This document shows positions 21,856 through 64,000 of a DNA stretch of 64,000 nucleotides, in pieces. This DNA comes from an uncultured Gemmatimonadaceae bacterium (GTDB lineage: Bacteria; Gemmatimonadota; Gemmatimonadetes; Longimicrobiales; RSA9): NCBI GenBank assembly GCA_964410055.1, contig CAYPGK010000004.1:2831-66830 (forward strand), in the 5' to 3' direction. Every line of letters starts with the position of its first letter. The stretch's first letter is position 1. Position numbers and translations under genes: made by a program. The notes beneath the pieces are model-generated. The model saw only the letters and a program-made list of their open reading frames with translations, did not search any database and was not told the DNA's origin.

Positions 21856-21919
21856 CCGGCCGCCCCGTCACGCCGCCGAATGCCGGCGGCCGGGCCGTGA
21901 CGGGCGGCCGGTGTTTTCC
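21856..21919 (+). other. long GC-rich imperfect hairpin with a T-run on the plus strand (terminator-like, orientation opposite to the flanking genes)
   Basis: CCGGCCGCCCCGTCAC-GCCGCC-gaatgcc-GGCGGC-cgggcc-GTGACGGGCGGCCGG followed by TGTTTTCC. It sits in the 143-bp spacer between the STAS gene and the RsbW-like gene. Confidence 0.4.
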
Positions 21920-21956
21920 TTGGGGAAGTTAACGCCCGTAGCGGAAAAACGGTAGG

Positions 21957-22289: not shown

Positions 22290-22365
22290 GGCTCCCCCGT
22301 CGCACGAGTGTAGTCGCAGTTTGGCGCCCGGCCGCTCGGCGGGCAATTTCGGTGCCGGCCGCGGC

Positions 22366-33399: not shown

Positions 33400-33603
33400 C
33401 GACCCGCAGCGTTCGGGGGGAAAGCTCGTCACCGCCCGGAAGGTACCGCGGCGAACGGTCGACTTCAAGCGCGCGGGCGCTCGAATTGCATTCGCGTGCC
33501 GGCGGCCGGGCCCGGCCGGGCCTTGCGACCCGGCAGGACCGGGAGCGGCGGCCGGGGATCGCCGGGACAGCGCGCGGAAATCACGGGGATCGAGGAGGGG
33601 GCA

Positions 33604-38878: not shown

Positions 38879-39159
38879 CGTGCCCGGTCCCCGGCGCCCC
38901 ACTCTGGTCCCTTCACCGCCCGCCCGCCCCGCATCCCATTGCCACCACACGACTTGGAACACACCGACCCCGAGGCTGTAGGATCCCGTCGTCCGTGACG
39001 TCCCCGCGAGTCCAGTCCTGCTGAGAGAGGTAGTTCCGAGAGATGCGACGGAGCATCGAACCCGCGACCGATGACGCGCGGGGCACCCTGCTTGCACCCC
39101 ATGCCACGCCGAGTGGCGCGCCTGCGGGCGGCCGAACCTCGATCCGGTCCCGACGGCGC

Positions 39160-40651: not shown

Positions 40652-42175
40652 CTAGAAGAACATCCGGACCCCGAGCACCATCGCGCTCTCGACCCAGTCG
40701 CCCTCCCCGGCTTCGGTGCCCGCCTCGAAGATGATGTCGAAGGGCGGGCGCGGTCGGAACGCCGCGTGCGCGAGGAACCCCGTGCTCCGCCCCTCGCGGT
40801 CCGGCGCGAAAAGGTTCTCCGCGCCCCGGTCGCGGAAGAGGAGCGTCGCGCCGATGCGGAGGCGCGCGTCCAGCACGTCGGCGCGCGCCCAGGTGCGCCA
40901 CTCGGAGCCGTGGCCGCCGAGCGGGTGGCCGAGGGGGACGCCGTCGTTCGTCCAGCCGCCGAGGAACTGCCAGTGGCGGTACCAGATCGGGTTGCCACAG
41001 CAGCGCGGGCTGAATGAGGCGCGCTCGATGCCCAGCGCGGCAGCCGGCGCGCCGGGGAGCGCGGGGATCTCCACCCCGGCTACGACGCCCGGTACGTCCG
41101 ACCACGCGCCCGCGCTGTCTTCCAGCCCCCACTCCAGATAAACGATCAGGGGCAGCTCCTGGATCGGCGGACGGAACCAGGCGTCGAGGGACAGGATCTG
41201 GTTGTCGAACCCGCTCCCCGCGCCGCCGTGCTTGCCGACCATGAGGAAGGCCAGGTTCTTCAGACTGAGCGCGTTCTTCCCCTCGCCCCCGAACATGGCC
41301 GTGCGGGTCAGCCCCAACCCGAAGCGCCGGTGCGGTTCGATCGTCGCGCGCATCCCCCAGATCCATGGCCGCCCGATCGGCGCGTCGTGTTCGACGCGGG
41401 AGAGGAACGTCTCGAAGAGGACCGGCCCGAGCGCCTCGAGGAACGACGGGAGCAGGACGGGGTCCGTGAGGAAGATCCCGCCGCCATCGAAGGAGGCCAC
41501 CGGGTTGAGGACGACGCCGCCGCCCGCACCCGTCACGTAGCCGAGCGTGCGTCGGCCGACCCAGACCCCGGCGTCACGCCAGACGGCGGTCGCGTAGCCG
41601 CCGCCGAAGCGCCACTCGCCCCCGGTCCGAAGCGGCGTGAACCCGACCGCGGCCGCGGGGAAGAGCTGGGCGGCCCAGTCGCCCGCGCCCATGGCGGTGG
41701 ACACGTCCTCCGCATCTTCCGGCCCGGTCCAGTCCACGTCGTTCTCGTAGCCGATCCCCGGGAGGAGGCGGCCACTCCGCAGCTCGTAGCCCGCGGCAAC
41801 GGCGCCGTCGTCGAGACCGAGCCCGGAAGAATCCTGCCCGGCCAGCTCCGCCATCGTCGTCGGATACTCTTCGCCGAAGCGGTCGCGGTAGGTGCGGGCC
41901 AGGGAGAGGAGGTCGGGTTGGGTCCGTTCGGCGAGTCGCGTCGCGGCGTCGAAGATCCGCCCGACCTCCCGGCGCGTGAGCGGCCGCCGCGCCCGGTCGA
42001 AGCCGTGTTCGACGAGCCCGAGCGCGTGGAGCCGGCTCGCCGCCTCGATCGCCCAGTGGCCGGGCGGCAGGAACGCCGAGGCGAAGTCCGGCGTCCGCTG
42101 CTGCGCCGGCGCAACACCCGCCGCGAGCACGAGCGACGCCGCGATGATGGCGATGCGATGCACCCGTCCCTCCAT
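40652..42175 (-). CDS. outer-membrane beta-barrel protein, possibly capsule-assembly Wzi-like
   Basis: 507 aa from ATG 42175. Signal peptide MEGRVHRIAIIAASLVLAAGVAPAQQ, alternating beta-strand pattern, and a C-terminus ...VLGVRMFF ending in an aromatic residue as in OMPs. The Wzi assignment is from memory of similarly annotated proteins. Confidence 0.6.
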   Translation of the reverse strand: MEGRVHRIAIIAASLVLAAGVAPAQQRTPDFASAFLPPGHWAIEAASRLHALGLVEHGFDRARRPLTRREVGRIFDAATRLAERTQPDLLSLARTYRDRFGEEYPTTMAELAGQDSSGLGLDDGAVAAGYELRSGRLLPGIGYENDVDWTGPEDAEDVSTAMGAGDWAAQLFPAAAVGFTPLRTGGEWRFGGGYATAVWRDAGVWVGRRTLGYVTGAGGGVVLNPVASFDGGGIFLTDPVLLPSFLEALGPVLFETFLSRVEHDAPIGRPWIWGMRATIEPHRRFGLGLTRTAMFGGEGKNALSLKNLAFLMVGKHGGAGSGFDNQILSLDAWFRPPIQELPLIVYLEWGLEDSAGAWSDVPGVVAGVEIPALPGAPAAALGIERASFSPRCCGNPIWYRHWQFLGGWTNDGVPLGHPLGGHGSEWRTWARADVLDARLRIGATLLFRDRGAENLFAPDREGRSTGFLAHAAFRPRPPFDIIFEAGTEAGEGDWVESAMVLGVRMFF

Positions 42176-42316
42176 GGCTTCCGTCCGACACCCGGGCGAC
42201 GGGAGCTGCAAGTCCCGGGCACGACGTCTGCGCCCGTAAGGGACGGTCGAGGGGACGCCTCTCGCGCCCTGCCTGGCACGCGATGAACCGGTCATCGCGT
42301 GCCGGCCGGCCACCCC

Positions 42317-43606
42317 ATGCCATCCGGGAACCGCGTGCGCGTCGTCTACTACACCCACACGGCGTTCTTCGAGGTCGCCGCCTCGATCGTGCGCGAGCTC
42401 GCGCGCAGCGCCGAAGTGCACCTGCTCCTCGAAGTCGCGCCATCGGCGTGGCGGCTCGCGGGCTTCGATGCGACAGCGCGGCGCCTGCCCGCCGGGCTCG
42501 CCCCGGCGGACGACGTCCTGGGCGACGCCTTCCCGCCCGCCGTGCGCGCCTACTGGTCGGGCGCCGCCTCGTTCCACCTCGTCGCGCACGCGGAACGGCG
42601 GAGCCTGCACCCCTCCACAGTGCGGATCGGCCGACGGGTCCTGGACTTCGTCCGCGCGACCCGCGCCGACGTGCTCCACATCGACGACGTCGACGTCTCG
42701 CCCCGCCTCTCGCTCGCGCTCCCCTTCGCGCGCAGCTTGCCGATCGTCCTCAGCGTCCACGACCCGGTCCCGCACTCCGGTGAGCACGGCTGGCGCAAGC
42801 GACTCGCGCGGCGGCTCGCCTACCCCCGCGCGCGACGGTTCGTCCTCCACAACAGGTCGATGGTCGATGCGTTCCGCCGCGCCCACGGCGTCGCCCCCGA
42901 CGATGTTTCAGTCGCGCCGCTCGGGCTGCTCGAGATCTTCCGCGAATGGCGGAGCGCTGCGCCCGCCGCCGCACGGCCGCCCGTGCCTCCACCGCTCGTG
43001 GGCGAATCGCGCCCCGCGCCGGCGCCGCAACCGCCGGGCGCGCCGCCCGCGACGTCGCACCCTCCCACGATCCTCTTCTTCGGCCGGATCTCGCCCTACA
43101 AAGGGCTCGACGTGTTGTACCGCGCGCTCCCGCAGGTGGCCGAGCGGGTCCCGGGCGTTCGGGTCGTGGTCGCCGGGCAGCCGATCGACGGCTACACGCC
43201 GCCCACCCCACCGCTTCTCCCGCCGCCCGCACGGGTGGCGACGCACTTCGACTACCTCCCCAACGCACACCTCGCCCGCCTGCTCGAGGAAGCGACGGTC
43301 GTCGCCTGCCCGTACCGCGACGCCACTCAGAGCGGTGTGGTCCTGACCGCGTACGCGTTCGACCGGCCCGTCGTCGCCTCCGCCGTGGGCGGGCTGCCGG
43401 AGTACGTGGTCGACGGCGAGACCGGCGTGCTCGTCCCGCCCGGCGACGACGCGGCGCTCGCCGACGCCCTCGTCGGTACGTTGGAGCGCGCAACCCGCGC
43501 CCGCGACGGCGGCATGGGCGTTCTCGACCGCGCACGGCGAGCGTGGAGCTGGGACCGCACGGCGGCGACGCTCATGGATGCGTACCGCGAAGTATCGCGT
43601 CGATGA
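42317..43606 (+). CDS. glycosyltransferase family 4
   Basis: The GT-B C-terminal half carries the EX7E-type motif (PYRDATQSGVVLTAYAFDRPVVASAVGGLPEYVVDGETG). The start is ATG 42317 or GTG 42299. Confidence 0.85.
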   Translation: MPSGNRVRVVYYTHTAFFEVAASIVRELARSAEVHLLLEVAPSAWRLAGFDATARRLPAGLAPADDVLGDAFPPAVRAYWSGAASFHLVAHAERRSLHPSTVRIGRRVLDFVRATRADVLHIDDVDVSPRLSLALPFARSLPIVLSVHDPVPHSGEHGWRKRLARRLAYPRARRFVLHNRSMVDAFRRAHGVAPDDVSVAPLGLLEIFREWRSAAPAAARPPVPPPLVGESRPAPAPQPPGAPPATSHPPTILFFGRISPYKGLDVLYRALPQVAERVPGVRVVVAGQPIDGYTPPTPPLLPPPARVATHFDYLPNAHLARLLEEATVVACPYRDATQSGVVLTAYAFDRPVVASAVGGLPEYVVDGETGVLVPPGDDAALADALVGTLERATRARDGGMGVLDRARRAWSWDRTAATLMDAYREVSRR

Positions 43607-43619
43607 TCCGGGTGCCCTC

Positions 43620-45146
43620 TCACTCCGTCGCCCACACCCTCCCCGCCGCCCGCCGCAATCCCCGCCCCACCGCCGCCCGCTCCGCCCTCGCGGCCGGCAT
43701 CGCCAGGTACGCCGCCACATACGCTGCCCCGCCGGCCAGCGCTGCCACCGCCGCGCTCCCTATTGCCGTCGCGCCGATGAGCCGTTCAACGGCGAAGAGC
43801 GCCGCGCCCATGGGCAGCGCGGGGACCAGCGCAGGCGCCCATGTCTCGCGGACCACGTCTCCTGCGGGGATACGCAGCGTGCGGAGCGTGTACGGCAGCG
43901 CGACGCCGAGCGCGGCGATGGCGTTCGCGACGAGCGTCGCGAGCGCGACGCCCGCGAGTCCGAGCGGGCGGACCAGCGCAATCGAGAGCGCGACGTTGAG
44001 GATCCCGGCGCCCATCGCCGTCACGGCCAGGACGCGCTGCCGTGCGATCCCCTCGAGGACCGCGCCGGCCGCCCACTGGCTCGTCTCGAGCAGACACGCG
44101 ACGGCCAGGATCGCGGCGAGTCCCGCGGCGCCGGCGAAGGCCGGGCCGACCCACGCGGTCAGCACCGCCTCCGCGTAGCGGACGAGGAGCACGGCCGCGG
44201 GGACCACGATCCCGAGCGTGATCCGCGAGCCGTGGAGGTAGAGCGCGCGCAGCCGCTCGGCCTCACCCAGCGCCTCCAGCTCGGATGCGAGCGGGATGAT
44301 GACCTTGAGGAACTGGTCCGCCACGATCTGCGCCGCCTCGGCCAGTCGCCGCGCGATGGCGTACGGTGCGATCGCGCCGACCGGGAGGAACGCCGCGATC
44401 ACGAACTCGTCGCTCCGCGTACCCAGCCGGCTCCCCAGCCGGTAGGCGAAGGACGCCGCCCCGAACGTGAGCAGTCGCCGCGCCGCCGGCCGGCTCGCGC
44501 CGCGCCAGCCGAAGCGAAGCCCCGGCGCGGCCCGGCGCGCGAGCCGGTGGTACGCCCACCGCGTCGCCGCGGTCACGACGATCGCGGTGCACGCCATCCC
44601 CACCACGCCACCGCCCGCGAGCACGACGAGCACCATCCCGCCCGCCGTCGCGATCGTGCCCACGACGCCGACCGCGTTGTACAGGTCGTAGCGCTGGAGC
44701 CCCTGGAGCGCGACGGCCACCGGCGTGAGCGCCAGCGTAGCGCCGATGTGCAGGCCGGTGAGCACGACCAGCGGCGCGACGAGCGGCCCGAGTGCGGCGG
44801 GCGCGTCGACCCACCGCGGCACGACGTGCGCTGCCGCGACGCCCGCCGCCGCGACGAGCGCACCGAGCGCGAGGAAGATCCGCAGCGACGTCGCCAGCAG
44901 CGCGTTCGCCCCCGCATCCTCGCCTCGCGCCCGGTCCTCGGCCACGTACTTCACGACCGCGCCGCCGATCCCGAGGTCCAGGAGCGTGCCGTAAGCGAAC
45001 GCCGAGCCGACCAGGACCCACAGCCCGTAGGCGTCCGCGCCGAGCGCGTGCACGAGGAACGGGGTGAGCAGGAACGACGTCGCGAGCGCGACGAACTTGC
45101 CGGCCAGGTTGCTCGCCGCGCCGCGGAGCAGCCGCCGCCCGATCAC
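43620..45146 (-). CDS. oligosaccharide flippase (Wzx / polysaccharide biosynthesis protein family) no. 1
   Basis: 508 aa polytopic protein from GTG 45146, with a GTGA overlap on the upstream GT2 stop. N-terminus LLRGAASNLAGKFVALATSFLLTPFLVHALGADAYGLW is typical of Wzx/MOP proteins. Confidence 0.8.
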   Translation of the reverse strand: MIGRRLLRGAASNLAGKFVALATSFLLTPFLVHALGADAYGLWVLVGSAFAYGTLLDLGIGGAVVKYVAEDRARGEDAGANALLATSLRIFLALGALVAAAGVAAAHVVPRWVDAPAALGPLVAPLVVLTGLHIGATLALTPVAVALQGLQRYDLYNAVGVVGTIATAGGMVLVVLAGGGVVGMACTAIVVTAATRWAYHRLARRAAPGLRFGWRGASRPAARRLLTFGAASFAYRLGSRLGTRSDEFVIAAFLPVGAIAPYAIARRLAEAAQIVADQFLKVIIPLASELEALGEAERLRALYLHGSRITLGIVVPAAVLLVRYAEAVLTAWVGPAFAGAAGLAAILAVACLLETSQWAAGAVLEGIARQRVLAVTAMGAGILNVALSIALVRPLGLAGVALATLVANAIAALGVALPYTLRTLRIPAGDVVRETWAPALVPALPMGAALFAVERLIGATAIGSAAVAALAGGAAYVAAYLAMPAARAERAAVGRGLRRAAGRVWATE

Positions 45147-46054
45147 CGGCCGCCGGGCCCGGCGCGGAGCCACGCCGCGCCGCCGACCACGACCCCCGCC
45201 AGGTATGCGACGTCGCCGAGCGCGGCCCGCGGGCGTGTGAGCGCCCGCCGCGGCAGCCGCAGCGCGATCTGCCCCACGCGCCGCGCCGCGAGCGAGAGCA
45301 CCGCCCGCTCCCCGCCGGCGACGTGCTTCGCGTAGAACGCGCCCTGGCCGTACCCGTAGCGCCAGCGCTGCGGCACCAACTCCCGCCCCTCGCGCCACGC
45401 CCGGTGCCAGACGAACGCCGCCGGCTCGAAGTGGACGCGGCCGCCCGCGCGGAGCAGGCGGAAGCCGAAGTCGTTGTCCTCCGCGCCCGGGAAGGGGGCG
45501 CCGGCGCCGAGTCGCTCGTCGTAGCCGCCCAGCGCCTCGTAGTCCTCCCGGTGGATCGCCAGGTTCCCGGCGACGAGCGCGTCGCGCGGATTGCCCGCGT
45601 CGTAGACGGCGGGCTCCGAGTCGAGGCGCAGCGCGGGGACGTACCCGCCGGGCCGCTCCTCGAGCGGGAGCACACGCCCGCTCACCGCCGCGCCCGGCCC
45701 GGCGGCGCGGAGCGCGCCGACCAGCGTGCGCAGCCACGCGCGGTCGACGATGCAGTCGTCGTCGGTGAAGGTCAGGACCGGGTGGGCGGCGGCGCGCACG
45801 CCTTCGTTCCGGGCGCGGCTCAGCCCACGGGACGTGGTGTGGAGGTAGCGGAGCGTGCACCCGTTCGGAACCGGCGTCACGGCGAGGGTGCGGTGAGGAG
45901 CGTCGCTCTGGTCGACGACCACGATCTCGGCGGGGACCGCATCACCGGCCAGGACCGAGGTGATGGCGTCCTCGATCATCCGCGGCCGGTCCCGCGTGCA
46001 AAGGATGAGCGACGTCGCCTCGAGGACCGGCGGCGTCGGCCCGCGTGCGTCCAT
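45143..46054 (-). CDS. glycosyltransferase family 2 (paralog A)
   Basis: 303 aa; SLILCTRDRP, VVVDQS, FTDDDC (DxD) and GAEDNDFGFRL. Confidence 0.85.
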   Translation of the reverse strand: MDARGPTPPVLEATSLILCTRDRPRMIEDAITSVLAGDAVPAEIVVVDQSDAPHRTLAVTPVPNGCTLRYLHTTSRGLSRARNEGVRAAAHPVLTFTDDDCIVDRAWLRTLVGALRAAGPGAAVSGRVLPLEERPGGYVPALRLDSEPAVYDAGNPRDALVAGNLAIHREDYEALGGYDERLGAGAPFPGAEDNDFGFRLLRAGGRVHFEPAAFVWHRAWREGRELVPQRWRYGYGQGAFYAKHVAGGERAVLSLAARRVGQIALRLPRRALTRPRAALGDVAYLAGVVVGGAAWLRAGPGGR

Positions 46055-46060
46055 GGCGCC

Positions 46061-46972
46061 TCACCCGCCGTCGGGGCCCGGCACGCGCAGCCCGTAGAGC
46101 AGCCCCGTGCCCGCGCCCCGCAGCATGAGCGCCTCCTCGTGCACGCGGCGCCACCGGCCGAGCGCGCACGCGCCGGCCAGGACGCGGCCGCGGTCGAAGC
46201 ACCAGCGTGCGAGGACCGCGAGGGCGTACGGGTCGCCGCGTCGCAGCCAGAGCGCGCAGAAGGCGCCCATCCCGTGGCCGTAGCGGGGCCGGCTCGCCAG
46301 CCGCCGGGCCGTGCTCTGGCGCTGGTGATAGACCCGTGCGTCCGGCTCGTAGCGGATCGACCCGCCTGCGCGCAGCAGCTTGTAGAGCAGGTCCATGTCC
46401 TCGCCCGCGTGCCCGGGCGAGCCGGCGCCGAGCCGCTCGTCGAAGCCGCCGACCCGCTCGAACCGCTTCCGGCGCACGGCCGTGTTCCCGCCCGTGCCCA
46501 CCCGCCACGGCAGCGCACGCACCCGGTACTCCACGCGCTCCTCGCTCGTCCGGCCGGACACGGCGTGCGTCCCCGGGCGCGCCGGACCGAGCGGGAGGAC
46601 CGGCCCCGTGACCGCGGCCAGATCCGGGGCCTCCGTGAACGTGCGCGCCACCGCGGCGACCCACCCGCGCGACGGCACGCAGTCGTCGTCGGTGAACGCC
46701 AGGATCGGGTGGCGGGTTGCGGCTGCAGCGGCGTTGCGGGCGGCCGAGAGCCCGCGCGGTTCCGCGCGGACGTAGGTGAGGTGCACGCCGGCCGCGCGCC
46801 GCGCCTCGACCTCGCGGCGCGCGTCGTCGCCCGGACCCTGGTCGACCACGACGACCGCGCCCGGCACGACGTCGCCCGCCAGGATCCCGTCCAGGCAGCG
46901 CGCGAGCGCCTCCGGCCGGTCCAGCGTCGGCACGGCTACGGCCACCTCCTCCGCCACGCGCGTCCCGCTCAC
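46061..46972 (-). CDS. glycosyltransferase family 2 (paralog B)
   Basis: 303 aa from GTG 46972 (GTGA overlap). AVAVPTLDRP, VVVDQG, FTDDDC and AGEDMDLLYKL. It aligns with paralog A along the full length. Confidence 0.85.
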   Translation of the reverse strand: MSGTRVAEEVAVAVPTLDRPEALARCLDGILAGDVVPGAVVVVDQGPGDDARREVEARRAAGVHLTYVRAEPRGLSAARNAAAAATRHPILAFTDDDCVPSRGWVAAVARTFTEAPDLAAVTGPVLPLGPARPGTHAVSGRTSEERVEYRVRALPWRVGTGGNTAVRRKRFERVGGFDERLGAGSPGHAGEDMDLLYKLLRAGGSIRYEPDARVYHQRQSTARRLASRPRYGHGMGAFCALWLRRGDPYALAVLARWCFDRGRVLAGACALGRWRRVHEEALMLRGAGTGLLYGLRVPGPDGG

Positions 46973-48642
46973 GGCCACGTCCTCTCGAAGACCCGCGCCG
47001 GACGCTCCGCCAGGACGCCGATGTAGGCGACGTACGGGTTCCCCTCCCTCCCCGGCGCGACCCCGCCCGCGCGCAACCGAAGTGCCCGGTCGAGAGCCTG
47101 TTCGAGGAGCAGGTTGAGGAGGAAGAGCGGCGCGAGCCGCCGGTCCAGCTCCAGACGACCCATGTAGCGGGCATGGGCGCGACGGCAGGCGCGAGAGGCG
47201 CCATCGCCGCACTCGGGCTCGAGGAAGAGCCGCTCGAAGTCGCGCAGCCGTTCGGCCGGGCGGCGAGCGCCGTGCACCAGCCACGACCAGTGCAGCGTAA
47301 AATAGAAGAGGTCGCAGAGCGGCGGGCCCGGCCGCGCGACCTCCCAGTCGATCACCGCGACCCTCTTGCCTTCGACGTGCACGTTCCAGGGGCCGAAGTC
47401 CCTGTGCTGCCAGACGACCGGGAAGATGCACCCCGCCGCGCCCTCGGCCCACTGCCGCGCCCGCTCGAAGAGACGCCGCTCGTCGTCCGTGCAACCGAAC
47501 ACGGCCGCGTACCGCGCGACCGGCCGCTCGAGCAGCCGGTCGATCCGCCGTCCGTCCAGGATCGTCTGGGCCAGCACGCTCCGGAGGTGGAACGACGCCA
47601 GCCACGTCGTCGCCCCCCGCAACGCGGCGATCGCCTCACGCCCACCACCCGCACACGCCGCGTACACCGACCGCCCGGCCACGCTCCGCTCCACGCTCAC
47701 CGCGAGCCCGCGCCACCGCCCCGCCCGCGCCGGCGCCGGGAGCGTTGCCCGCAGCCGCGGGCCCACACGCGCCCGGATCCGCTCCAGCATCGCGTGCTCG
47801 TGCATCGTGGCATCGTTGTACCGACGCAGACGCGGGTGCTTGATCACGGCCGCCGGCCGCGCCGAACGCTCCTGGAATGGCAGCACCACTACCCGGCTCC
47901 ACGCCCCCTCCCCGCCCAGCAGCACCACCGGCCGCGCGCGCGGCGGTCGGAGCGTTGCCGGGACACCGCGGCCGCCGAGGACGCCCGGCGCAACTCCGGC
48001 ACCGCGCGGCACCCCCACGCTCGCCTCCGCACGCCCCCCCACCCGCGCCGTCACGACGTACGCCGGCACCAGCGTGCCGAAGCGCCAGGCACGCCCGCCG
48101 GTGACCAGACGGGCCGCCGCCCCCAGCACCCGACCGATCCATCCGCGCGGCGCGTGGTGCCGCGTCCCGTACCACGTCAGCGCGGCGTCCGACTCGAGGG
48201 GCAGGTACATCGCGCACCGATCGTGATCCGGCTTCGCCCACCAGCACCCCAGCGCCTCGAACCCCGCCCGCGCGAGCGCCCGGCCGAGCCGGGCGGGTGT
48301 CCACGCCGCGCCGGAGAGCGAGCGCCGATCGACCTCGACGAGCAGGACGCCGCCCTCACGGAGCCAGCGCCGCGCCTCTGCCGGCCGGACTCTCGCACCC
48401 CGGAGTAACACGACCGCGTCCGCAGCGCACTCGTCCGGCGGCGCCGACGACGCCGTTTGCGCGAGCCCGAGCCGCACCACGTCCTCCGCCGCGCCCGGCG
48501 GGCCGCCCAGCACGACCATGTGCCGGAACCTGGCCCCAGGCGGCATGGGCAGGAGGAAACGCCAGTCATACCTGCGCAGCCGGTCCGCGTCGATGGCGGC
48601 GCCCCGCGCCCGTGCCGCTCCGGTCCTCTGTGCCTTGCTCAC
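46969..48642 (-). CDS. two-domain protein: N-terminal methyltransferase-like Rossmann domain + C-terminal APH/choline-kinase-type phosphotransferase
   Basis: 557 aa from GTG 48642 (GTGA overlap). The kinase catalytic loop HRDFGPWNVHVEGKRVAVIDWE is encoded at 47341-47406, verified by translation. The N-terminal domain has VVLGGPPG...DAVVLL...WLREGGVLLVEV (MTase motif I/III-like, with a degenerate glycine loop). Confidence 0.75.
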   Translation of the reverse strand: MSKAQRTGAARARGAAIDADRLRRYDWRFLLPMPPGARFRHMVVLGGPPGAAEDVVRLGLAQTASSAPPDECAADAVVLLRGARVRPAEARRWLREGGVLLVEVDRRSLSGAAWTPARLGRALARAGFEALGCWWAKPDHDRCAMYLPLESDAALTWYGTRHHAPRGWIGRVLGAAARLVTGGRAWRFGTLVPAYVVTARVGGRAEASVGVPRGAGVAPGVLGGRGVPATLRPPRARPVVLLGGEGAWSRVVVLPFQERSARPAAVIKHPRLRRYNDATMHEHAMLERIRARVGPRLRATLPAPARAGRWRGLAVSVERSVAGRSVYAACAGGGREAIAALRGATTWLASFHLRSVLAQTILDGRRIDRLLERPVARYAAVFGCTDDERRLFERARQWAEGAAGCIFPVVWQHRDFGPWNVHVEGKRVAVIDWEVARPGPPLCDLFYFTLHWSWLVHGARRPAERLRDFERLFLEPECGDGASRACRRAHARYMGRLELDRRLAPLFLLNLLLEQALDRALRLRAGGVAPGREGNPYVAYIGVLAERPARVFERTWP

Positions 48643-49844
48643 GCCGCCTCCGCACTGCGGGCGGTGACCGGTTCGAGCCCGACGACCGTCCGCAGCAGCC
48701 TGGGCGCCACCGATTCCGGCGTAAACTCGCGCTCGTAGCGACGTCGCGCCGCCGCGGCTGCGGCCTCCAGGCGTGCCGGCGCCTCGAGCACCTCGATCAG
48801 TGCAGCCGCCGCGCCCTCCGGGTCGTCCAGGCTCCAGAACCGACCTTCGACGCCGTCCGCGAGCACCTCCGGTATCCCGCCGACCGGCGGCGCGAAGACG
48901 GGGCACCCGGCCGCCATCGCCTCGAGCAGCGCGATCGGGCAGTTCTCCATCGTCGCCGCGTGGACGTACGCCCGGTGCCTCGGCATGAGCGACGCCGCGT
49001 CCCGCACGTAACCCGGCAGCGCGACGTGCCCGGCCACGCCCAGCTCCTCGGCCAGCGCCCGCAGCCGCGACCGCAGCGGACCCTCACCGACGATCGTGAG
49101 CCGGTAGCGCCGCCCCAGCCGATGACACACCGCCAGCACCTCGAGGAGGAATGCATGGTTCTTCCGGACGTCCAGCGTGCCGACGCTGATCAGGTCGCCC
49201 GCGGGCACGTCACGCGCCGCCTCATCGCGCGTCCCCGCCGGCACGAAGTTCGGGATGCACCAGCGCGGCACCGAGGCGACTCCTTCGATCCGCTCCATGA
49301 CGCGACGCATCATGAAGCGCGACGGGAAGATCAGGCGGTCGACCCGCGGGAGCACCTCCTGCTCCAGCGCGGCGATGCGCCGGTATAGCGCGCCGCCGCG
49401 CGTGATGTAGCCGTGGTCCGCCCACTCGTCCGCCTGCGATTCGTTGAAGTGGACCATCAGCACGACCTCGACCGGCAAACCCCGCTCACGCGCGTCCAGT
49501 GCGGCCCGTGCCGCGAGCGGGTCCTGTGCGTAGACCACGGCCGGCGCGCCCGGCGCGAGCGCGCGCACGAGCGCCTGCCGCAGCAGGGTGTAGTGCAGCC
49601 GGCGATACCACCAGACCCAGAAGCCCTTGTGGAACGGCTTGGCCAGACGCCCGACGGCGAAGCTGGGATACACGACCGCGGGACCCATGTCGAACGGCGT
49701 GATCAGCCGGACGCCCCAACCGACCTCGCGCGCCGCACCCAGGAACATCCGGCAGTGCGTCTGAACGCCCGTCTCGCCCTCCGGCCGCAGGATCGTGGCC
49801 ACGTAGACGTCTCGCACCACGGGCGTGGACACCGCTCGCTCCAT
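48639..49844 (-). CDS. glycosyltransferase family 4
   Basis: 401 aa; GT-B C-terminal motif HAATMENCPIALLEAMAAGCPVFAPPVGGIPEVLADGVEG. Confidence 0.88.
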   Translation of the reverse strand: MERAVSTPVVRDVYVATILRPEGETGVQTHCRMFLGAAREVGWGVRLITPFDMGPAVVYPSFAVGRLAKPFHKGFWVWWYRRLHYTLLRQALVRALAPGAPAVVYAQDPLAARAALDARERGLPVEVVLMVHFNESQADEWADHGYITRGGALYRRIAALEQEVLPRVDRLIFPSRFMMRRVMERIEGVASVPRWCIPNFVPAGTRDEAARDVPAGDLISVGTLDVRKNHAFLLEVLAVCHRLGRRYRLTIVGEGPLRSRLRALAEELGVAGHVALPGYVRDAASLMPRHRAYVHAATMENCPIALLEAMAAGCPVFAPPVGGIPEVLADGVEGRFWSLDDPEGAAAALIEVLEAPARLEAAAAAARRRYEREFTPESVAPRLLRTVVGLEPVTARSAEAA

Positions 49845-49889: not shown

Positions 49890-52800
49890 TCAATCCAGGG
49901 CATTCGCCGTGCCGCCGTCCGCCGCCGCGTAGTCGGTCGCGGCGTCCGGGCAAACGTCGAGCTCGAGGGCTTCCGCGATGCTGCGCCACGAGAACGCAGC
50001 GACGTTGCCGTCGTCGTGGACGGCGAAGAAGGCGCCGCCCGCGAGCGGGCCTACATCGCCCTCGATCACCGCGATGCCGTCCGTGTTGCGCGTCTCGCGT
50101 CCCCGGAACGCGCCGAGGTAGTCCAGCTCCACTCGCTCGAAGACGTGGAACGTGTTGTCGACGGCGTGCTGGTCGGCCAGGATCCAGTACCCGTCGGCGC
50201 CGCAGCGGAAGAGCGCGATCCCTTCCGGCTCGCCGCTGAAGTAGCCCGTGATCTCCGTGCCCGTGAACTCGCCGTCGAGCGTGTAGACGTTGATGTCCTT
50301 CGAGCGCTCGTCCGCGATCAGCAGCCGCCCGTGTTCGGGATCGGCCGCGATCGATTCGACGACGCGGAGCGAGCCGGCGCCCGAGACGTCGCCGAACGCA
50401 CGGACCAGCTCCGCCTCCACCGAATGGCCCGTGCGCCTCACACGGAAGTGCTTCACTCGCGTCGCCAGCTGCTCCGCCACGCCCGGATCACCCTCCGGCT
50501 GGTCCGTGACGTAGACGTCGAGCGCCCCGTCGCGCTCGACGATCGTGATCCCGTAGGGTCGTATCAACACATCCCTGCCGAAGCTGCCCAGCGGCTCGAG
50601 CGCCGGGAGCGTAAAGGCCTGCACGCGACGGTTGTCTCGCTCTACCACCAGGAGCACGTCGCGCGTGGCGGCGATCCCGTTCGGGCGGTCGAACTCGCCG
50701 GCGCCGTCCCCTTCCCTCCCCAGCCGCCGCAGAAGCGCCCCGGTCGCGGCATCGTGGATCAGGACGGCGTCCCCCTGCTTCGCGGTGACGAGGAGCCACA
50801 CCGAACCATCGGGCGCGCGCCACGCGATGGGAGAATCGATGTCGAGCGCCCCGTCGCGCACGGTCATGTAGGCCTCGGCGAGCGTCACCGTGTCCGGCCC
50901 GGCGCCCGTCGTGTCGTCGGGCGGGAGGCCGACCCGGCCGCCGGTCGGCGCGTCGTCGCACCCGGCCGCGGCGAAGGGGAGCACGGCCGCGAGGACGAGC
51001 GCGCGGAGCTTGCGGATCGGCGCGTGGACCGCGCGGTAGCGCCACTGCTTCAACTGCTGGAGCCAGGGCGGGTCGCGGAGCAGGCTCTTCAGCTCGAGCC
51101 CGACCCGGTGCCGCCAGAGGGCGTCCCAGCCGCCCCGGTCGGTCGCGCCCCAGTCGGGACGATCGCCGTCGAAGTCCTCTGGCAATCCGGCCAGTTCGTA
51201 GCACCGCTCCAGCACGGGCGGCCGCTCGCGATACCGGTGCATGAACTCGAAATCGATGATCTTCACTTCGCCCCCGGGGCCGAGGAGCAGGTTGGACGGC
51301 GAGAGGTCGACGTGTGCGAAGCCGTGCTCGTGGAACGTGCGCACCGCGCGCAGCACGCGATGGACCACGGAGAGCGGGAGGATCGCTTCCGGGTCCGGCG
51401 TCCTCGCGTCCGCGTAATAGGGGTAGATCACGTAGTCGTCGCCGGCCTCGAGGAGCGGCGGCACCTCCGGCACGACGCCGCCGAAGGTGCGCAGCGCCAG
51501 GACCTCGCGCTCGAGGAACCGCTCGCACCCCGGCCGGAACGTCTTCTTCACCGCGAGTCCGTCGCCGTACGCGACGACCTCTACCTTCGCCCGCCGTCCG
51601 ATCCGCGTCAGCGTCGCGCGCACGGGCTCCGCCGTCCGGAACCGCTCGCGCAGCGCCTCGAGCTCCTGCCGCACCGCATCGACCTCCGCCGGGAGCGCCG
51701 TTTCCAGGTAGCGCAGGGCTTCCACGTGATTGTCGCTCGAGTGCAGCATGTTGCAGCGCATCTCTGGCGGAAGGCCGTCGTTCAGCGCCTCCCGGATCGC
51801 GGACTTCACCAGGAGCCGCGCGTTGTCGAGCGTCGGGAAGCGACGTCGCTGCGCCGCATCCGGCGCGATGGGGATCAGGTCGCAGGCGACGACGACGCTC
51901 GCCGGCCCGCCGCCCGAGACCGGCCACGGCCCGCGCCCCCAGTTCCCGCCGCGCACGCGCGCCGCAACCCGCTCGGCGGCCTCCGCATCCAGGACCTGGT
52001 GGCGCAGCACGTGGAACCCTTCGGCACGCAGCCGCCGCACGACCTCGCCCTCCAGCCCCAGCTCCACCGCACGTTCGCGGATGAAGAAGACCGCAAGGCC
52101 GTCCCACTCGTCGAGCTTCGCCGGGACCGTCCGCGCGAGTCGGTCGCGGAGCCAGTCGTTCCTCGCCACGAGGCGGGTGAGCATGTCCTCGGGCGGGCGC
52201 CAGCCGGCCCTAGCCAGGTGCGCGTCGAGCGCGTCCAGCGTGATCTCGACGTCGATTCCGCACGTGTGGGCCAGGCGAGTGAGGACGCCGGCGTAATCGT
52301 GCTCGGGCTTGCCGCCCCACGGCGCCGCGCCCTTCCGGGCCGGGATCCCGGACCGCTCGCCTTTGTGGTAGAGGGCGTGGTAGGCCAGACTGTGGAAGTG
52401 GTCCTCCGGACACGGCGCCCACACACCCGCCGGCGTGCGGACCGCGCGCTCGAGGAGCCGGCGCGCCAGCGCGGGCGGGTAGTACGCCATCTCCTCGTAC
52501 GCACTCCCGGGCAGCCCCGAGACGCTGTAGAGGTCGACCGGGATCGTCCCCGGCTCCGCGCCCAGGATCTCTTCGACCCGCTCCAGCGACGCGTCGTCGA
52601 CCAGCAGGTCCAGATCCTCGCCCGCCGCCACCTCCGGCAGCCCCTCGAACCAGCGCAGCACGCAGTATCGCACACCCGCCACGTCCAGTGCCTCGAAGAA
52701 GCCACGTACGCCCAGGGATGGCGAGATGTACCGGCGCGCCGGCAGGGCGGCAGGCGGCCGCACATCGGCCACGACGCACCACAGGGACCCGCCGTCGTCG

Positions 52801-53216
52801 CCCCGCATCCGAGCCGCGCCCCGGACGCGGAGGCGGCGCCGGAGCGCGTGGCGGGCGAGCCCGAGCGCCCCGAGCGCCGCCCCCCGCCCCGCCCCCGGCG
52901 CCCACGCGACCCGACGCGCCCACCAGTAGTCCCCGAAGCGCCAGAGGTGCCGCCCCGCCGCCCCCGTGAGTACCAGCAGCTCCGCGCGGCTCGGCGGCAC
53001 GCCCCCCTCCACCACGCCCATGCACCGCATCCTGCCGTGAGACCGGAGCACCCGCACGAGCCACGGCGAGTGCGCGCCAACGGCAAGGACGCGCGCCTCC
53101 TCCGGGCAGAGGTCCAGGAACGCCTCCCGCGACGCCGCGCCGAACGCGAGCGCGACCGCCCGGGCGAACGCTGCCTGGAGCACGGCCGTGATGCGCCCCG
53201 GCGCCCGCTCCATCAC
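49890..53216 (-). CDS. multidomain membrane protein: NTase-like + NDK-like + protein-kinase-like + TM/lipobox + beta-propeller-phytase-like domain
   Basis: Uninterrupted 3.3 kb frame. Verified motifs: NMLHSSDN (51729-51752), HVDLSPSNLLLGPGGEVKIIDFE (51246-51314) and GYWILADQHAVDNTFHVFER (50133-50192). The start may be GTG 53219, GTG 53216 (GTGA overlap) or ATG 53213. See findings. Confidence 0.7.
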   Translation of the reverse strand: MMERAPGRITAVLQAAFARAVALAFGAASREAFLDLCPEEARVLAVGAHSPWLVRVLRSHGRMRCMGVVEGGVPPSRAELLVLTGAAGRHLWRFGDYWWARRVAWAPGAGRGAALGALGLARHALRRRLRVRGAARMRGDDGGSLWCVVADVRPPAALPARRYISPSLGVRGFFEALDVAGVRYCVLRWFEGLPEVAAGEDLDLLVDDASLERVEEILGAEPGTIPVDLYSVSGLPGSAYEEMAYYPPALARRLLERAVRTPAGVWAPCPEDHFHSLAYHALYHKGERSGIPARKGAAPWGGKPEHDYAGVLTRLAHTCGIDVEITLDALDAHLARAGWRPPEDMLTRLVARNDWLRDRLARTVPAKLDEWDGLAVFFIRERAVELGLEGEVVRRLRAEGFHVLRHQVLDAEAAERVAARVRGGNWGRGPWPVSGGGPASVVVACDLIPIAPDAAQRRRFPTLDNARLLVKSAIREALNDGLPPEMRCNMLHSSDNHVEALRYLETALPAEVDAVRQELEALRERFRTAEPVRATLTRIGRRAKVEVVAYGDGLAVKKTFRPGCERFLEREVLALRTFGGVVPEVPPLLEAGDDYVIYPYYADARTPDPEAILPLSVVHRVLRAVRTFHEHGFAHVDLSPSNLLLGPGGEVKIIDFEFMHRYRERPPVLERCYELAGLPEDFDGDRPDWGATDRGGWDALWRHRVGLELKSLLRDPPWLQQLKQWRYRAVHAPIRKLRALVLAAVLPFAAAGCDDAPTGGRVGLPPDDTTGAGPDTVTLAEAYMTVRDGALDIDSPIAWRAPDGSVWLLVTAKQGDAVLIHDAATGALLRRLGREGDGAGEFDRPNGIAATRDVLLVVERDNRRVQAFTLPALEPLGSFGRDVLIRPYGITIVERDGALDVYVTDQPEGDPGVAEQLATRVKHFRVRRTGHSVEAELVRAFGDVSGAGSLRVVESIAADPEHGRLLIADERSKDINVYTLDGEFTGTEITGYFSGEPEGIALFRCGADGYWILADQHAVDNTFHVFERVELDYLGAFRGRETRNTDGIAVIEGDVGPLAGGAFFAVHDDGNVAAFSWRSIAEALELDVCPDAATDYAAADGGTANALD

Positions 53217-54133
53217 CACCCCGCCCGCACACGCTCGCGCGCCCGCAGCCGCAGCGCCTCACGTGCGAAGACCACCGGCTCGATCCAGGCGAGCGGCGCG
53301 GCCCGGAGCGAGATCCTCGCCGCCCGCAGCCACGACACCCGGAGTCCGGCCGCGCCAAGCCGGTCACTCAGCCATCCGGGCCGCGAGGGAAGGTAGTGAC
53401 GCGGCGAGAGGAAGCTCCGCCCGATGTGGCCGAAGCGCGTAGGGTGGTAGTGCGCGAGCTGCGCCGCGCCGCGCGCGAGCCGCCGCTGCTTCACCAGGAG
53501 CGCGCCCCAGCTCGCCCGGGCGGGGTGCCGGAGCACGATCTCCCCGCCGTACACCTGCCGGTAGCCCGCCGCGTGGACCCGCTGGCCAAACTCCAGGTCG
53601 CCGCCGGACTCGAGCCGCGCATCGAACACTCCCACCGCATCGACCACCTCGCGTCGCACGCACATCGCACACGTCGGCGCGAAGTGCAGCCGCTCGAGGT
53701 ACTCTCGCACCGGGAATCCGACCGCGCGGTTGTACCACGCCGCGAGCGTCGGCGGCTCGGGCACGATCTCGACCCGGCACCCCAGGTAGTCCGCACCACC
53801 CTCGAACGCCTCCGCGACCCTCGCCAGGTAGTCCGGCGGCGCCCACATGTCCGCGTCGACGAAGCAGAGGATCCGGCCTCCCGCGAGCCGGATCCCCTCG
53901 TTCCGCGCCGCGTACGACGTCCGCACAGCGACCTCGCGGCCGACCACCACCCGCTCACCGTGCACCTCGCGCAGCCGCTCCGCCACGCGCGGAGTCTCGT
54001 CCGTCGAGCCGTTGTCGACGACGACCACCTCGTACGCCCGTGCGCCCTCCTGCCGCATCAATGAAGCGACCGTCGTTGCCAGCCCCCGTGCATCGTTGCG
54101 CACGGGCACGATCACCGAGATTTCTGGTTCCAT
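53213..54133 (-). CDS. glycosyltransferase family 2
   Basis: 306 aa from ATG 54133 (MEPEISVIVPVRNDARGL...VVVDNGSTDETP...FVDADM). The upstream 640 aa of the track ORF is a GC artefact overlapping the flippase gene. Confidence 0.88.
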   Translation of the reverse strand: MEPEISVIVPVRNDARGLATTVASLMRQEGARAYEVVVVDNGSTDETPRVAERLREVHGERVVVGREVAVRTSYAARNEGIRLAGGRILCFVDADMWAPPDYLARVAEAFEGGADYLGCRVEIVPEPPTLAAWYNRAVGFPVREYLERLHFAPTCAMCVRREVVDAVGVFDARLESGGDLEFGQRVHAAGYRQVYGGEIVLRHPARASWGALLVKQRRLARGAAQLAHYHPTRFGHIGRSFLSPRHYLPSRPGWLSDRLGAAGLRVSWLRAARISLRAAPLAWIEPVVFAREALRLRARERVRAGW

Positions 54134-62057: not shown

Positions 62058-63206
62058 TTACGCAGTGAACGCCTCCCGGATCCGGCTCCAGATCCCTCGC
62101 TCTCGCTCCGCACCCGCCCCGGTCGGCGGCGGATCCTCGATCTCCGCAAGCCGCCTCAGCAGCTCCGTCTGCTCCGGCGATAGCTCCGTCGGCACCCAGA
62201 CGTGCACCCGGACGATCAGGTCGCCGCGACCGCCGCCCCGGAGATGCGGCAGGCCCTTCCCCTTGAGCCGAAGCAGCCGGCCCGGCTGTGTGCCCGCCGG
62301 GATCGACACCCGCGCCGTCCCCTCGACCGTCGGGATCTCGACCTCCGCGCCCAGCGCCGCTTGCGTGAACGTGACCGGGAATTCGTGGATCAGGTCCGCG
62401 CCTTCACGGATGAAGCGCGGGTCTTCCTCCACCTCGAGCACGACGATGATGTCGCCGCGAGGCGCGCCGCGTACGCCGCTGTTGCCCTGACCCCGCAGCG
62501 TGATGTAGTCGCCGGACGACACACCCGGCGGGACCTCGACCTGGACCTCACGCTCGGCGCGCATCACGCCCTCGCCGTCGCACCGATCGCACAGATCCAC
62601 GATCTCGGTCCCCTCGCCACGGCACGTGGGGCACGTCGTCACGCTCACGATCTGGCCGAGCAGCGAGCGCTGGACGCGCCGGACCTCGCCACCGCCGCCG
62701 CACGTGCTGCACGTGCGCGGAGCCGCGCCGCCCGCCGAGCCCGTGCCCGAGCACGCATCGCACGGATCGAGCACCTTGACCCGCAGCGTCTTCTTCGTGC
62801 CCGACGCCACATCGGCGAGGGTGAGCGGCAGCCGGAGCTGCATGTCCGGCCCCTTCCGGCGCGCGCCACGGCTCCGGTGGCCGCCCCCGAACAGATCGTC
62901 CAGGCCGAAGCCGCCGAAGTCGCGCATGAAGATGTTCAGCGCCTCGGCGAAGTCGAAGCCGCTGAAGCCCGCGCCCCCTGCCGCGCCGCCCACGCCCGCG
63001 TGGCCGTACCGGTCGTAGGCGGCCCGCTTCTGCGGGTCGCGCAGGACCTCGTACGCCTCGGTCGCTTCCTTGAACTTCTCCTCGGCTTCCTTCGACCCGC
63101 CGTTCCGGTCCGGATGGTACTTCAGCGCTAGCTTGCGGTACGCCTTCTTGATCGCGTCCGCGTCCGCATCCCGCGCTACGCCGAGGACCTCATAGTAGTC
63201 GCGCAT
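62058..63206 (-). CDS. dnaJ: molecular chaperone DnaJ
   Basis: J-domain YYEVLGV...KYHPDRN, a G/F region and four CxxCxGxG zinc motifs ([32 protein letters not shown]). Confidence 0.97.
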
Positions 63207-63282
63207 TCCACTCCAATACGGCGAAGGCGGAGGCCATCCTGTCGGGTGGCCATCCGCCGGGTGAACGTCCGACCGCTCGCCT

Positions 63283-64000
63283 TCAGGACTCGCGCCCGGG
63301 GCCCCGAGGCCCGGACGCGTCGAACGAACCGGGATCGCTCAGGAATTGTGTGAGCAGCGAACTGGCCGAATCCACGATCGTGACCACCTTCTCGTACGGC
63401 ATCCGTGTCGGCCCGATCACGCCGAGCACGCCCGTCAGGTTGCCGACCCTGTACTCCGACGTGATCAACGTGAAAGTGCTCAGCTCCGGATGCTCGTGCT
63501 CTTCGCCGATCGTGATCTTCAGCGTCGAATCGTGCTCGCGCATGACCAGCACGTCGCTCAGGAGATCGCGCCGCTCGGTCAGCTCGATCAGGTTCTTCAG
63601 ACTCTCCCCCGAGGCGAACTCCGGCTGATTCGCCAGCACGCTGGTCCGGCCCAGGTGCACGTCCTCGCCTGTCAGCTCCGTTCCGTCGAAGAGATCTTCG
63701 GCCGACTGGAGGAAGATGTTGAGCAGCTCGGTCGTCGCCTCATCGTCCGAAGGCGCCGCATCCCTAAGCCGCTCCGGCAGCGTGCGCCGGATCTCGCTCA
63801 GCGTCCGACCCGCGAGCCGCTCGTTCAGCACCAGCGCCACCGGGACCAGCGTGTCCGTCGGCACCGACATCGGCAGGTCCACGTAAACCGTCCGAACGAC
63901 GCCGCTCCGCAGCGCCAGGACCATCAGCACCTTGTCGCTCGAGACCGCGATCAGCTCGAGCTTCTCCAGCACCGACTCACTCAGCCGCGGCGCCGAGGCC
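63283..64000 (-). CDS. hrcA: heat-inducible transcription repressor HrcA (N-terminus beyond window edge)
   Basis: The frame is open to the window end. The C-terminal part has the HrcA layout (...[19 protein letters not shown]...). Confidence 0.85.

Follow-up and report, generated by a model that had tools for sequence, protein, structure and literature searches.

A polysaccharide locus in a 64,000-nt stretch of DNA from an uncultured Gemmatimonadaceae bacterium (contig CAYPGK010000004.1, positions 2,831 to 66,830; the entire stretch is hereinafter denoted the window) contains a single open reading frame (ORF) of 1109 aa, located at 49890..53219 on the minus strand. As judged by comparison with related loci, this ORF represents two successive genes of the polysaccharide locus that became joined in frame through the loss of about 260-440 nt. 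The product of one parent gene is a multi-enzyme of the cytoplasm, built from an N-terminal domain, a predicted Pol-beta nucleotidyltransferase (NTase), a domain with the nucleoside-diphosphate kinase (NDK) fold, a eukaryotic-type protein kinase (ePK)/WaaP-like kinase and a basic tail. The product of the other is a lipoprotein that carries Asp at position +2 and has a divergent propeller of the beta-propeller phytase (BPP) family as its body. The fusion is fixed in one natural Longimicrobiales-like (Gemmatimonadota) population and is lineage-specific, being neither an artefact nor an ancestral architecture. The NTase and NDK-like core, in turn, represents a widespread uncharacterized family whose members are always tied, by fusion or adjacency, to glycosyltransferases (GT), for the most part GT2, and in many cases to a WaaP-type kinase as well.

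The ORF runs uninterrupted from end to end, as had been reported in the sequence-only reading of the window. The count of 1109 aa is from a GTG codon; an ATG at 53213, two codons inside, is the likely start and yields the 1107-aa protein that is called in public assemblies. The G+C content of third codon positions (GC3) is 0.92 across the whole ORF (window G+C, 72%), and because it stays at about 0.9 in one frame throughout, no frameshift is indicated. Four variants of the fused protein, distinguished by single-residue differences, were detected on a total of more than 25 contigs in ENA, NCBI and Logan assemblies, with the same junction in all of them. The uniform coding frame and the recurrent junction rule out a frameshift or assembly artefact joining separate genes, a possibility that the earlier reading had itself named as damaging to its proposal. 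The fused architecture is confined to one cluster at 90% identity.

None of the approximately 100 close homologues extends past aa ~735 of the query, and all end in an Arg-rich tail. In a Longimicrobiales metagenome-assembled genome (MAG; locus L002), the gene order is the same as in the window (dnaJ, priming transferase, GT2, Wzy-like, GT4, GT2, Wzx, GT2, homologue), and the 811-aa homologue is followed, after a 264-nt spacer, by a separate gene whose 371-aa product starts with MARPNRSRRHRRSAPTRALRLALGATAAAALALGC-DD and is 66% identical to aa 733-1100 of the query (E = 2e-163). The same two-gene arrangement was found in L003 and L008. In all three of these related Gemmatimonadota, an enzyme of ~810-850 aa with a basic tail and a lipoprotein of ~370 aa are encoded by separate genes; the lipoproteins are 64-69% identical to the C-terminal part of the query and each has its own Met, signal peptide and lipobox. 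The ORF had been read as one protein with an unfamiliar combination of modules, and conservation of the fusion in related genomes had been named as a check; the relatives have two genes, and the fusion, a recent evolutionary accident, is specific to one lineage.

The junction lies at A740/L741 (nt 51000/50999; 50996..51003, minus strand), where the tail of the kinase gene, ...IRKLRA, directly meets the h-region of a lipoprotein signal peptide. Past IRKLRA740, the frame continues as L741-VLAAVLPFAAAG-C754-DD, that is, with the h-region and lipobox, and Arg-Ala codons are present at the crossover point in both parental sequences. The material lost at the junction comprises the basic tail, the stop codon, the spacer (84-264 nt in the relatives), the start codon and the n-region; compared with L003, 258 nt are missing, and compared with L002, 441 nt. 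The retained h-region and lipobox, LVLAAVLPFAAAG-C754 followed by Asp-Asp (50958..50999, minus strand), align with MARPN...ALRLALGATAAAALALGC-DD of the L002 lipoprotein and with its L003 counterpart.

A hydrophobic segment ending in AAAGC had already been noticed at this place. It is indeed present, at aa 741-754, but its apolar stretch comprises just 13-14 residues, so that, by these sequence features, it corresponds to the signal peptide of a lipoprotein, lipobox included, and not to a designed transmembrane (TM) helix. Lipoproteins are defined by a positively charged n-region, an h-region and a lipobox at the N-terminus ([LVI][ASTVI][GAS]C); the unfused orthologues of the propeller half have all of these elements in place, whereas in the fused protein the signal is internal, 740 residues from the N-terminus. 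As for an internal start for the lipoprotein, neither ATG nor GTG occurs in frame close to the junction. The one candidate, a TTG located 30 codons before Cys754, lacks an evident ribosome-binding site and is unlikely to be a lipoprotein start. In Escherichia coli, Asp at position +2 after the lipidated Cys leads to retention in the inner membrane, a rule that may or may not extend to this phylum.

These features of the junction bear on the receptor-kinase logic that had been proposed by analogy with PknD, whereby the propeller would sense a periplasmic ligand and control the cytoplasmic modules, thus regulating exopolysaccharide synthesis. Formally, a kinase, a hydrophobic segment and a six-bladed propeller follow one another here as they do in PknD-type receptor Ser/Thr kinases, the propeller contains an NHL-like blade as does the PknD sensor, and the NCBIfam PknD profile matches the ORF with E = 0.004, covering the catalytic loop only. 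However, this order was born of a gene-fusing deletion and occurs in one population only, the propeller is an independent lipoprotein in the loci of the relatives, and the hydrophobic segment is a 13-14-residue signal peptide with a lipobox. Furthermore, the kinase belongs to a GT-linked three-enzyme family in which neither a TM segment nor a propeller or other extracellular domain was found among the ~100 close homologues or the 150 representatives listed. A receptor function therefore appears very improbable.

The same junction could be regarded as a tolerated lesion: the deletion would have inactivated one or both partners, for example through an unexported propeller or a mislocalized enzyme, and the ORF would persist because the event is recent. 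Such an outcome is what might be expected from the deletion of the start codon, ribosome-binding region and n-region of the lipoprotein and from the placement of a signal peptide 740 residues into a folded cytoplasmic protein. The population must also be young, given that the known variants differ by single residues, and the loss might be compensated by other genes of the island, among which are those for a second flippase, additional GTs and a further kinase-like protein. However, the 3.3-kb frame is intact and shows normal codon bias, the conserved catalytic-type residues of both halves are all kept, the junction preserves a complete positive-hydrophobic-lipobox signal, and the fused form is present in many assemblies. 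On this evidence, we consider a lesion improbable. In the interpretation that we favor, the fusion is plausibly neutral because the captured signal peptide would stand in for the lost basic tail as a membrane tether and would still export the propeller. For delivery to the periplasm, the signal peptide could remain uncleaved and act as an anchor, or it could be cut by Lgt/LspA at Cys754, which would generate two proteins again. The fusion provides a clean natural case in which the signal peptide of a lipoprotein has been taken up as an internal membrane segment, and a direct genetic hint that a cytoplasmic enzyme and a periplasmic propeller act on the same product.

The best-defined component of the enzymatic half is the kinase, which occupies aa 531-735 and, together with the start of the family C-terminal tail (aa 531-740), corresponds to 51000..51629 on the minus strand. 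A protein kinase-like region had been proposed at aa ~535-700, and both profile and structure comparisons bear this out. The domain alone scores 35.1 bits with the Pfam family Pkinase (cutoff, 31.7 bits; 31.8 bits for the full-length protein) and 20.2 bits with Kdo, just under the cutoff of 21.3, and the family profile matches ePK structures in the PDB over both lobes (E = 1e-8). The key residues are G541-R-R, K559, E572, D638, N643, D656 and E658, of which K559, E572, D638 and E658 are invariant, whereas N643 and D656 are kept in at least 90% of the homologues. Profile matches and residue conservation thus confirm, at the level of sequence, a predicted ePK/WaaP-like kinase with intact catalytic residues.

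For the region upstream of the kinase, structure prediction was decisive because a Pfam search with the full-length protein yields only the kinase, at threshold, and neither an NDK nor a phytase match. A 96-sequence family alignment was used for the prediction, and aa 150-530 and aa 150-372 were modelled separately. The N-terminal region proper (aa 1-149; 52773..53219, minus strand) is variable and is missing from the proteobacterial and spirochaete members of the family; it has no Pfam match, and the family profile retrieves nothing from the PDB at E<=10. A motif resemblance to methyltransferases, which would have made this region a degenerate member of that class, was likewise unsupported by any Pfam or PDB profile match. 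Within this region, aa 10-28 (53192-53141) form an apolar stretch, TAVLQAAFARAVALAFGAAS, with a Kyte-Doolittle hydropathy of 1.65 over 19 residues, which could be a membrane-associating helix; the closest homologues P0002-P0004 and P0006 have a similar sequence at this place, which P0005 and more distant members lack.

The segment that follows, aa 150-372 (52104..52772, minus strand), is a predicted Pol-beta-type NTase-like domain with a helical C-terminal part. When modelled alone, it reaches an AlphaFold pLDDT of 93.9, and all meaningful Foldseek matches in the PDB are Pol-beta NTases, namely ANT(2'')-Ia (the best match), MenT1, TM1012, CCA-adding enzymes and terminal uridylyltransferases. 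The GEDxD motif (G200, E201, D202, D204) and D229 are conserved; D204 and D229 do not vary among the 96 sequences, and E201 and D202 hardly do. Thus, the earlier assignment of aa ~170-290 to an NTase of the NTP_transf_5 type has modest support at the level of a predicted Pol-beta fold, whereas the Pfam family PF14907 was not reached (E = 0.19; score 11.7 bits, cutoff 31.2 bits).

Support at the fold level, in the form of structural models, was similarly obtained for a putative NDK-fold domain at aa 373-530 (51630..52103, minus strand), which is missed by Pfam. The aa 150-530 model has a pLDDT of 94.9 and a pTM of 0.90, and the 50 best Foldseek matches in the PDB are NDKs without exception (probability 1.0; E from 2e-4), with TM-scores of ~0.5-0.58 relative to the target. 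The motif N490-x-x-H493-S-S-D496 (N490-M-L-H493-S-S-D496 in the target) falls on the strand equivalent to NDK beta4, the carrier of the catalytic His, an equivalence based on how the strands are ordered in the model; all 96 sequences have H493 and D496, and nearly all have N490 and S494. Other prominent residues of the domain are R381, the RGGNWGRGPW insert (423-432), SGGxP (435-439), K472 and R476. The sequence-only reading had pointed to an NDK resemblance at aa ~374-510 with a conserved phospho-His position; both the fold and the His are recovered, but no match to PF00334 was obtained at E<=1, and the hhalign alignment with NME1 and E. coli Ndk is weak (34 columns aligned, probability 57%). 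The formation of a phospho-His and the transfer from nucleoside diphosphate (NDP) to nucleoside triphosphate (NTP) are putative activities of this domain.

The C-terminal half of the fusion contains a six-bladed beta-propeller at aa ~786-1100 (49920..50864, minus strand), with an NHL-like blade at aa ~830-870. In a Pfam search with the propeller alone, one NHL repeat scored above the cutoff (21.3 bits), whereas the Phytase family (PF02333) scored below it (17.5 against 21 bits; E = 0.0023). Against the PDB, a non-circular profile of four query-type propellers (A10) retrieved NHL proteins only, a signal that stems from a single blade matching every blade of TRIM71. Two other profiles, A2 and A7, produced full-length matches to phytases and were discarded as circular, both having contained bona fide BPP sequences. 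Elsewhere, the propeller genes located near a family enzyme belong to PF02333: those of L004 (Gemmatimonadetes; 7e-47), L084 (Spirochaetaceae; 3e-37) and, as a partial ORF, L045 (1e-20). The query propeller aligns with the L084 protein over nearly its full length (BLASTP, 7e-14) and with that of L004 at 8e-9. Because of these alignments to bona fide PF02333 neighbors, we regard the propeller as a divergent member of the BPP lineage, with altered motifs and one NHL-like blade. The phytase-like character that had been claimed for it thus holds as homology to PF02333 proteins, but not as a Pfam assignment.

The enzyme half is far more widespread than the fusion. A pattern scan of GTDB species representatives identified 259 relatives in at least nine phyla, with members in Gemmatimonadota, Cyanobacteria, Planctomycetota, Actinomycetota, Alpha- and Gammaproteobacteria, Myxococcales, Rhodothermales, Kiritimatiellia and Spirochaetota, and an exhaustive HMMER search with aa 150-530 yielded 982 clusters at 50% identity (487 at E<=1e-30), all of which contain the NTase and NDK-like parts together. 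Many members carry all four parts and the basic tail, whereas about 25 loci, mostly from Planctomycetota, stop after the NDK-like domain, the proteobacterial members are without the N-terminal region, and stand-alone NTase+NDK proteins of 360-420 aa exist as well. In a Bythopirellula MAG chromosome, two genes encoding the N-terminal, NTase and NDK-like parts occur in tandem (L071:9446-11152 and 11059-12813, plus strand). No description of the domain combination was found in the searchable literature.

Glycosyltransferases are regular companions of this family. In the window, the upstream gene (53213..54130, minus strand; Pfam GT2, 2.6e-26) is a conserved partner of the fused gene because its stop codon overlaps the start of the latter; the overlap, TGATG, combines the TGA of the GT2 gene with the target ATG and suggests translational coupling. 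The neighbor census was performed with profile hidden Markov models and bulk Pfam scans, single-sequence phmmer being too insensitive, and showed GT2 to be the commonest neighbor (33 of 106 first and 24 of 110 second neighbors, 57 of 216 overall), with ABC transporters, WaaP/Kdo kinases, GT4, GT61, LicD and sulfotransferases also recurring. In eight kinase-less loci of Planctomycetota, the adjacent gene encodes a WaaP/Kdo-type kinase (PF06293) fused to GT2, and in many other loci, a GT2 homologous to the GT2 half of this fusion abuts the family gene. Examples of the kinase-GT2 proteins, 540-610 aa in size with the kinase N-terminal and the GT2 C-terminal, are encoded on the minus strand at L051:7509-9251, L053:7488-9326, L069:1939-3669, L071:6419-8047 and L083:6445-8058; this architecture seems undescribed, and such a protein is a candidate glycan-phosphorylating glycosyltransferase. 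The module is also found at the C-terminus of large proteins, namely P0213 (1812 aa), P0197 (1328 aa), P0169 (898 aa), P0097 (922 aa) and P0084 (1182 aa), where it is fused to TPR+GT41, to GT4, to GT25 along with a DUF120/CTP-dependent riboflavin-kinase-like domain, or to a Wzx flippase; P0213 additionally includes an FkbM methyltransferase. Because architectures, neighbors and fusions vary in this manner across phyla, the functional unit is, to judge from gene and domain arrangement, made up of the NTase/NDK-like part, a kinase and a glycosyltransferase, which are differently split among genes.

The reading of the fused gene that we prefer combines the fusion itself with phospho-decoration of a glycan in the cytoplasm and processing by the propeller; taken jointly, with the established parts included, it falls a little short of an even chance. 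Under this scheme, the cytoplasmic enzyme, positioned at the inner face of the membrane and using NTPs, would attach a phosphate-containing group to the sugar unit that the coupled GT2 produces on undecaprenyl. Phosphorylation of a sugar hydroxyl, known from WaaP and WbdD, would be the task of the kinase, and the NTase/NDK pair would catalyze or power an additional step that depends on nucleotides. Once the glycan had been flipped, the propeller would trim or otherwise process the phospho-group at the outer face of the inner membrane. A BPP-family propeller gene is located nearby in all four distinct Gemmatimonadota loci with enough flanking sequence and in one spirochaete locus. Because the two genes are neighbors in every such Gemmatimonadota locus, we prefer the interpretation that enzyme and propeller act on the same polysaccharide, and the softer of the earlier ideas, a cytoplasmic phosphotransfer enzyme and a periplasmic phosphatase-like protein that may share one polysaccharide as a substrate, stays viable in this form.

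Several observations weigh against this scheme. The established chemistry of NDK is NDP/NTP interconversion only, which suits donor supply better than modification of an acceptor, and the common denominator of the four GT families to which the module is tied, GT2, GT4, GT25 and GT41, is the NDP-sugar donor. For the NTase domain, the Foldseek scores are modest, with a best E value of 0.017 and probabilities of 0.90 for ANT(2'')-Ia and 0.92 for MenT1. The split kinases of Planctomycetota are only weakly similar to the fused kinase domain and are at most putative orthologues of it. An apolar stretch of 13-14 residues is short for a stable anchor. As for the propeller, the BPP motifs are partly retained (DIDSPIAW and RPNGIA in the query against DDPAIW and NNVD in L004/L084), where we take DA[ATE]DDPA[ILV]W and NN[VI]D[ILV]R to be the Ca-binding and catalytic motifs of BPPs; because of these deviations, and because the A10 profile does not reach the solved phytases in the PDB, phosphatase activity of the propeller is uncertain. 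Finally, most of the phyla in which the family occurs lack a propeller partner, which is therefore not an obligate one.

Some of these points fit better with the main rival reading, a module for nucleotide-sugar regeneration that would close a private donor cycle at the membrane. In such a cycle, the kinase would make a sugar-1-phosphate from a free sugar, which the NTase would convert with NTP to an NDP-sugar; the GT would use this donor and release NDP, from which the NDK-like domain would restore NTP at the expense of ATP, whereas the propeller would be an unrelated neighbor or would act on undecaprenyl pyrophosphate. All three domains and the GT partner are thereby given a necessary role, including the NDK fold with its conserved His, and the promiscuous association with GTs, which share an NDP-sugar donor and an NDP product, is accounted for better than by phospho-decoration; moreover, no nucleotide-sugar synthesis genes were found in the window island or among the commonest neighbors. 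Anomeric sugar kinases of the APH/ePK fold coupled to nucleotidyltransferases exist in AmgK-MurU and NahK. Bifunctional kinase/pyrophosphorylases are represented by FKP (PMC11982464) and HldE (PMC10948575). On the other hand, regeneration demands of a Pol-beta NTase a chemistry never seen for the fold: no sugar-1-phosphate nucleotidyltransferase is known to have it, and the nearest structural neighbors of the NTase domain move nucleoside monophosphate to hydroxyl groups. The kinase is WaaP/ePK-like, and in glycan loci such enzymes phosphorylate assembled glycans. Nor would a soluble pathway need a basic tail or a membrane tether, and the conserved periplasmic propeller partner in Gemmatimonadota would be left without a role. 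We therefore view a donor cycle as unlikely, and phospho-decoration with propeller processing remains the preferred reading.

A broader formulation spans both possibilities. The NTase/NDK-like module and the kinase might constitute an unrecognized machine for the handling of nucleotides, one that associates by docking with Leloir glycosyltransferases from several families and either runs a private NDP-sugar regeneration cycle (sugar to sugar-1-phosphate to NDP-sugar, and NDP to NTP, with folds new to these roles) or installs a new nucleotide-activated phosphate decoration on lipid-linked glycans, with the phytase-like periplasmic lipoprotein of Gemmatimonadota as its counterpart. This proposal is speculative and, in our estimate, rather doubtful. 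Should it hold, the fusion in the window would be a natural 'Rosetta stone' that links a cytoplasmic writer to a periplasmic processor, and either a new pathway of phosphate- or nucleotide-derived glycan decoration or a new mechanism of donor supply for glycosyltransferases would follow, which would matter for genome-based prediction of polysaccharide structure and for glycoengineering. If the core family works as proposed, polysaccharide loci in at least nine phyla hold an unannotated enzyme with three NTP-using sites, one of which, the NDK-like domain, is missed by profile libraries. Carriers of the family include culturable species of Georgenia, Cellulosimicrobium, Cellulomonas, Janibacter and Lacipirellula.

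The island that harbors the fused gene is a Wzx/Wzy-type polysaccharide locus, in agreement with the operon context assigned to it before. It encodes Wza, the Wzc bacterial tyrosine kinase, a NosD-like beta-helix protein, Wzi, two Wzx-like flippases, an 8-TM Wzy candidate, a Bac_transf priming enzyme, nine GT2/GT4 proteins, a methyltransferase and a second kinase-like (APH) protein. It spans ~28 kb (33541-62000) between prmA (32518-33468) and dnaJ-hrcA (62058-63972), and the L002 island has the same flanks. Heat-shock genes and prmA are contiguous in many bacteria, so the window island looks like an insertion into this conserved neighborhood. Relative to L002, both the window and L003 contain an extra block between the fused gene or its counterpart and Wzi (42299-49844 in the window), which consists of a GT4, the APH-like gene, two GT2 genes, the second Wzx-like flippase gene and a GT4 in divergent orientation; the presence of two flippases suggests that the island specifies either two distinct repeat units or a pathway for a side branch. 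The APH-like gene (46969-48600, minus strand; 543 aa) encodes an APH phosphotransferase domain at aa ~250-440 preceded by a 250-aa N-terminus. It is kept at the same position in L003 (544 aa; APH, 2.9e-18), has phmmer relatives in L008 and L009, and is absent from L002. A relationship of its N-terminus to the N-terminal domain of the target family was ruled out (hhalign probability, 0.5%). The NosD/right-handed beta-helix protein, which could be a glycan lyase, hydrolase or epimerase, is encoded between Wzc and the Wzi homologue (39043-40644, plus strand, and 40652-42244, minus strand, in the window), an arrangement that is kept in L002. Wzi is best known from enterobacterial group 1 capsules, and a Wzi homologue in a Gemmatimonadota-like genome is notable. 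Elsewhere in the window, upstream of pta, there is an ordinary partner-switching set unrelated to the fusion gene (19790-22424, minus strand), with a GAF-SpoIIE phosphatase (19790-21385), a 146-aa ORF (21373-21813) and a STAS-domain protein (21957-22424).

Each module of the fused protein has known relatives from which it departs in specific ways. The propeller shares six blades with beta-propeller phytases such as PhyC of Bacillus (PF02333) and keeps the DxDxPxxW motif; unlike PhyC, it is a lipoprotein in a polysaccharide locus, has one NHL-like blade and altered BPP motifs, and scores under the Pfam cutoff, and phytate is an implausible substrate for it. The NTase domain has a predicted fold that resembles small Pol-beta NTases (ANT(2'')-Ia, MenT1, TM1012, NTP_transf_5) and the corresponding carboxylate triad pattern, D202, D204 and D229, a DxD plus a third carboxylate that would bind metal, although the structural match is weak (E = 0.017; TM-score 0.44) and, unlike in these enzymes, the helical C-terminal part has invariant motifs of its own, SLAYHAxYHKG, HDY and GWRPP. 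The NDK-like domain shares with NDK (PF00334) the fold, which has a beta-alpha-beta-beta-alpha-beta core and the His on strand 4, the strand order and N-x-x-H-[GS]-S-D, with its invariant His, on the equivalent strand, and a basic residue closes strand 1 in both (R381 in the target, Lys12 in NDK). It differs from NDK in its low sequence identity (12-18%), the missing Pfam match and the conserved RGGNWGRGPW insert, and in that it is never free-standing, the NTase domain always preceding it.

With respect to the kinase, the WaaP/Kdo family (PF06293) belongs to the same superfamily and has a similar GRR...K N-lobe and HxDxxxxN/D catalytic pattern; the target kinase scores below the Kdo cutoff and higher with Pkinase, and lacks the context of the lipopolysaccharide core. 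FKP, HldE and the AmgK-MurU pair, like the target, bring a kinase and a nucleotidyltransferase together in one glycan-precursor pathway, but the folds of both activities differ from those of the target, and neither an NDK-like domain nor a membrane tether is present. The closest parallels in overall organization are WbdD of E. coli O9a/Klebsiella O3 and ORF6 of Klebsiella O7, which are glycan chain-terminating methyltransferase-kinases; WbdD is held at the membrane by its C-terminal region. These enzymes have no NTase or NDK-like domain and operate in ABC-transporter pathways with a coiled-coil ruler, in contrast to the Wzx/Wzy-type locus in the window, and their relatedness to the target is shown at the kinase-superfamily level only. 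Nevertheless, like the target, they serve polysaccharide assembly in the cytoplasm and are composed of several domains, one of them a eukaryotic-type kinase, so that they set a precedent for glycan-directed ePK-like kinases joined to other modules: in both, the kinase phosphorylates a sugar of a polyprenol-linked glycan, and ORF6 includes GT2 modules (PMC3482155, PMC11231755).

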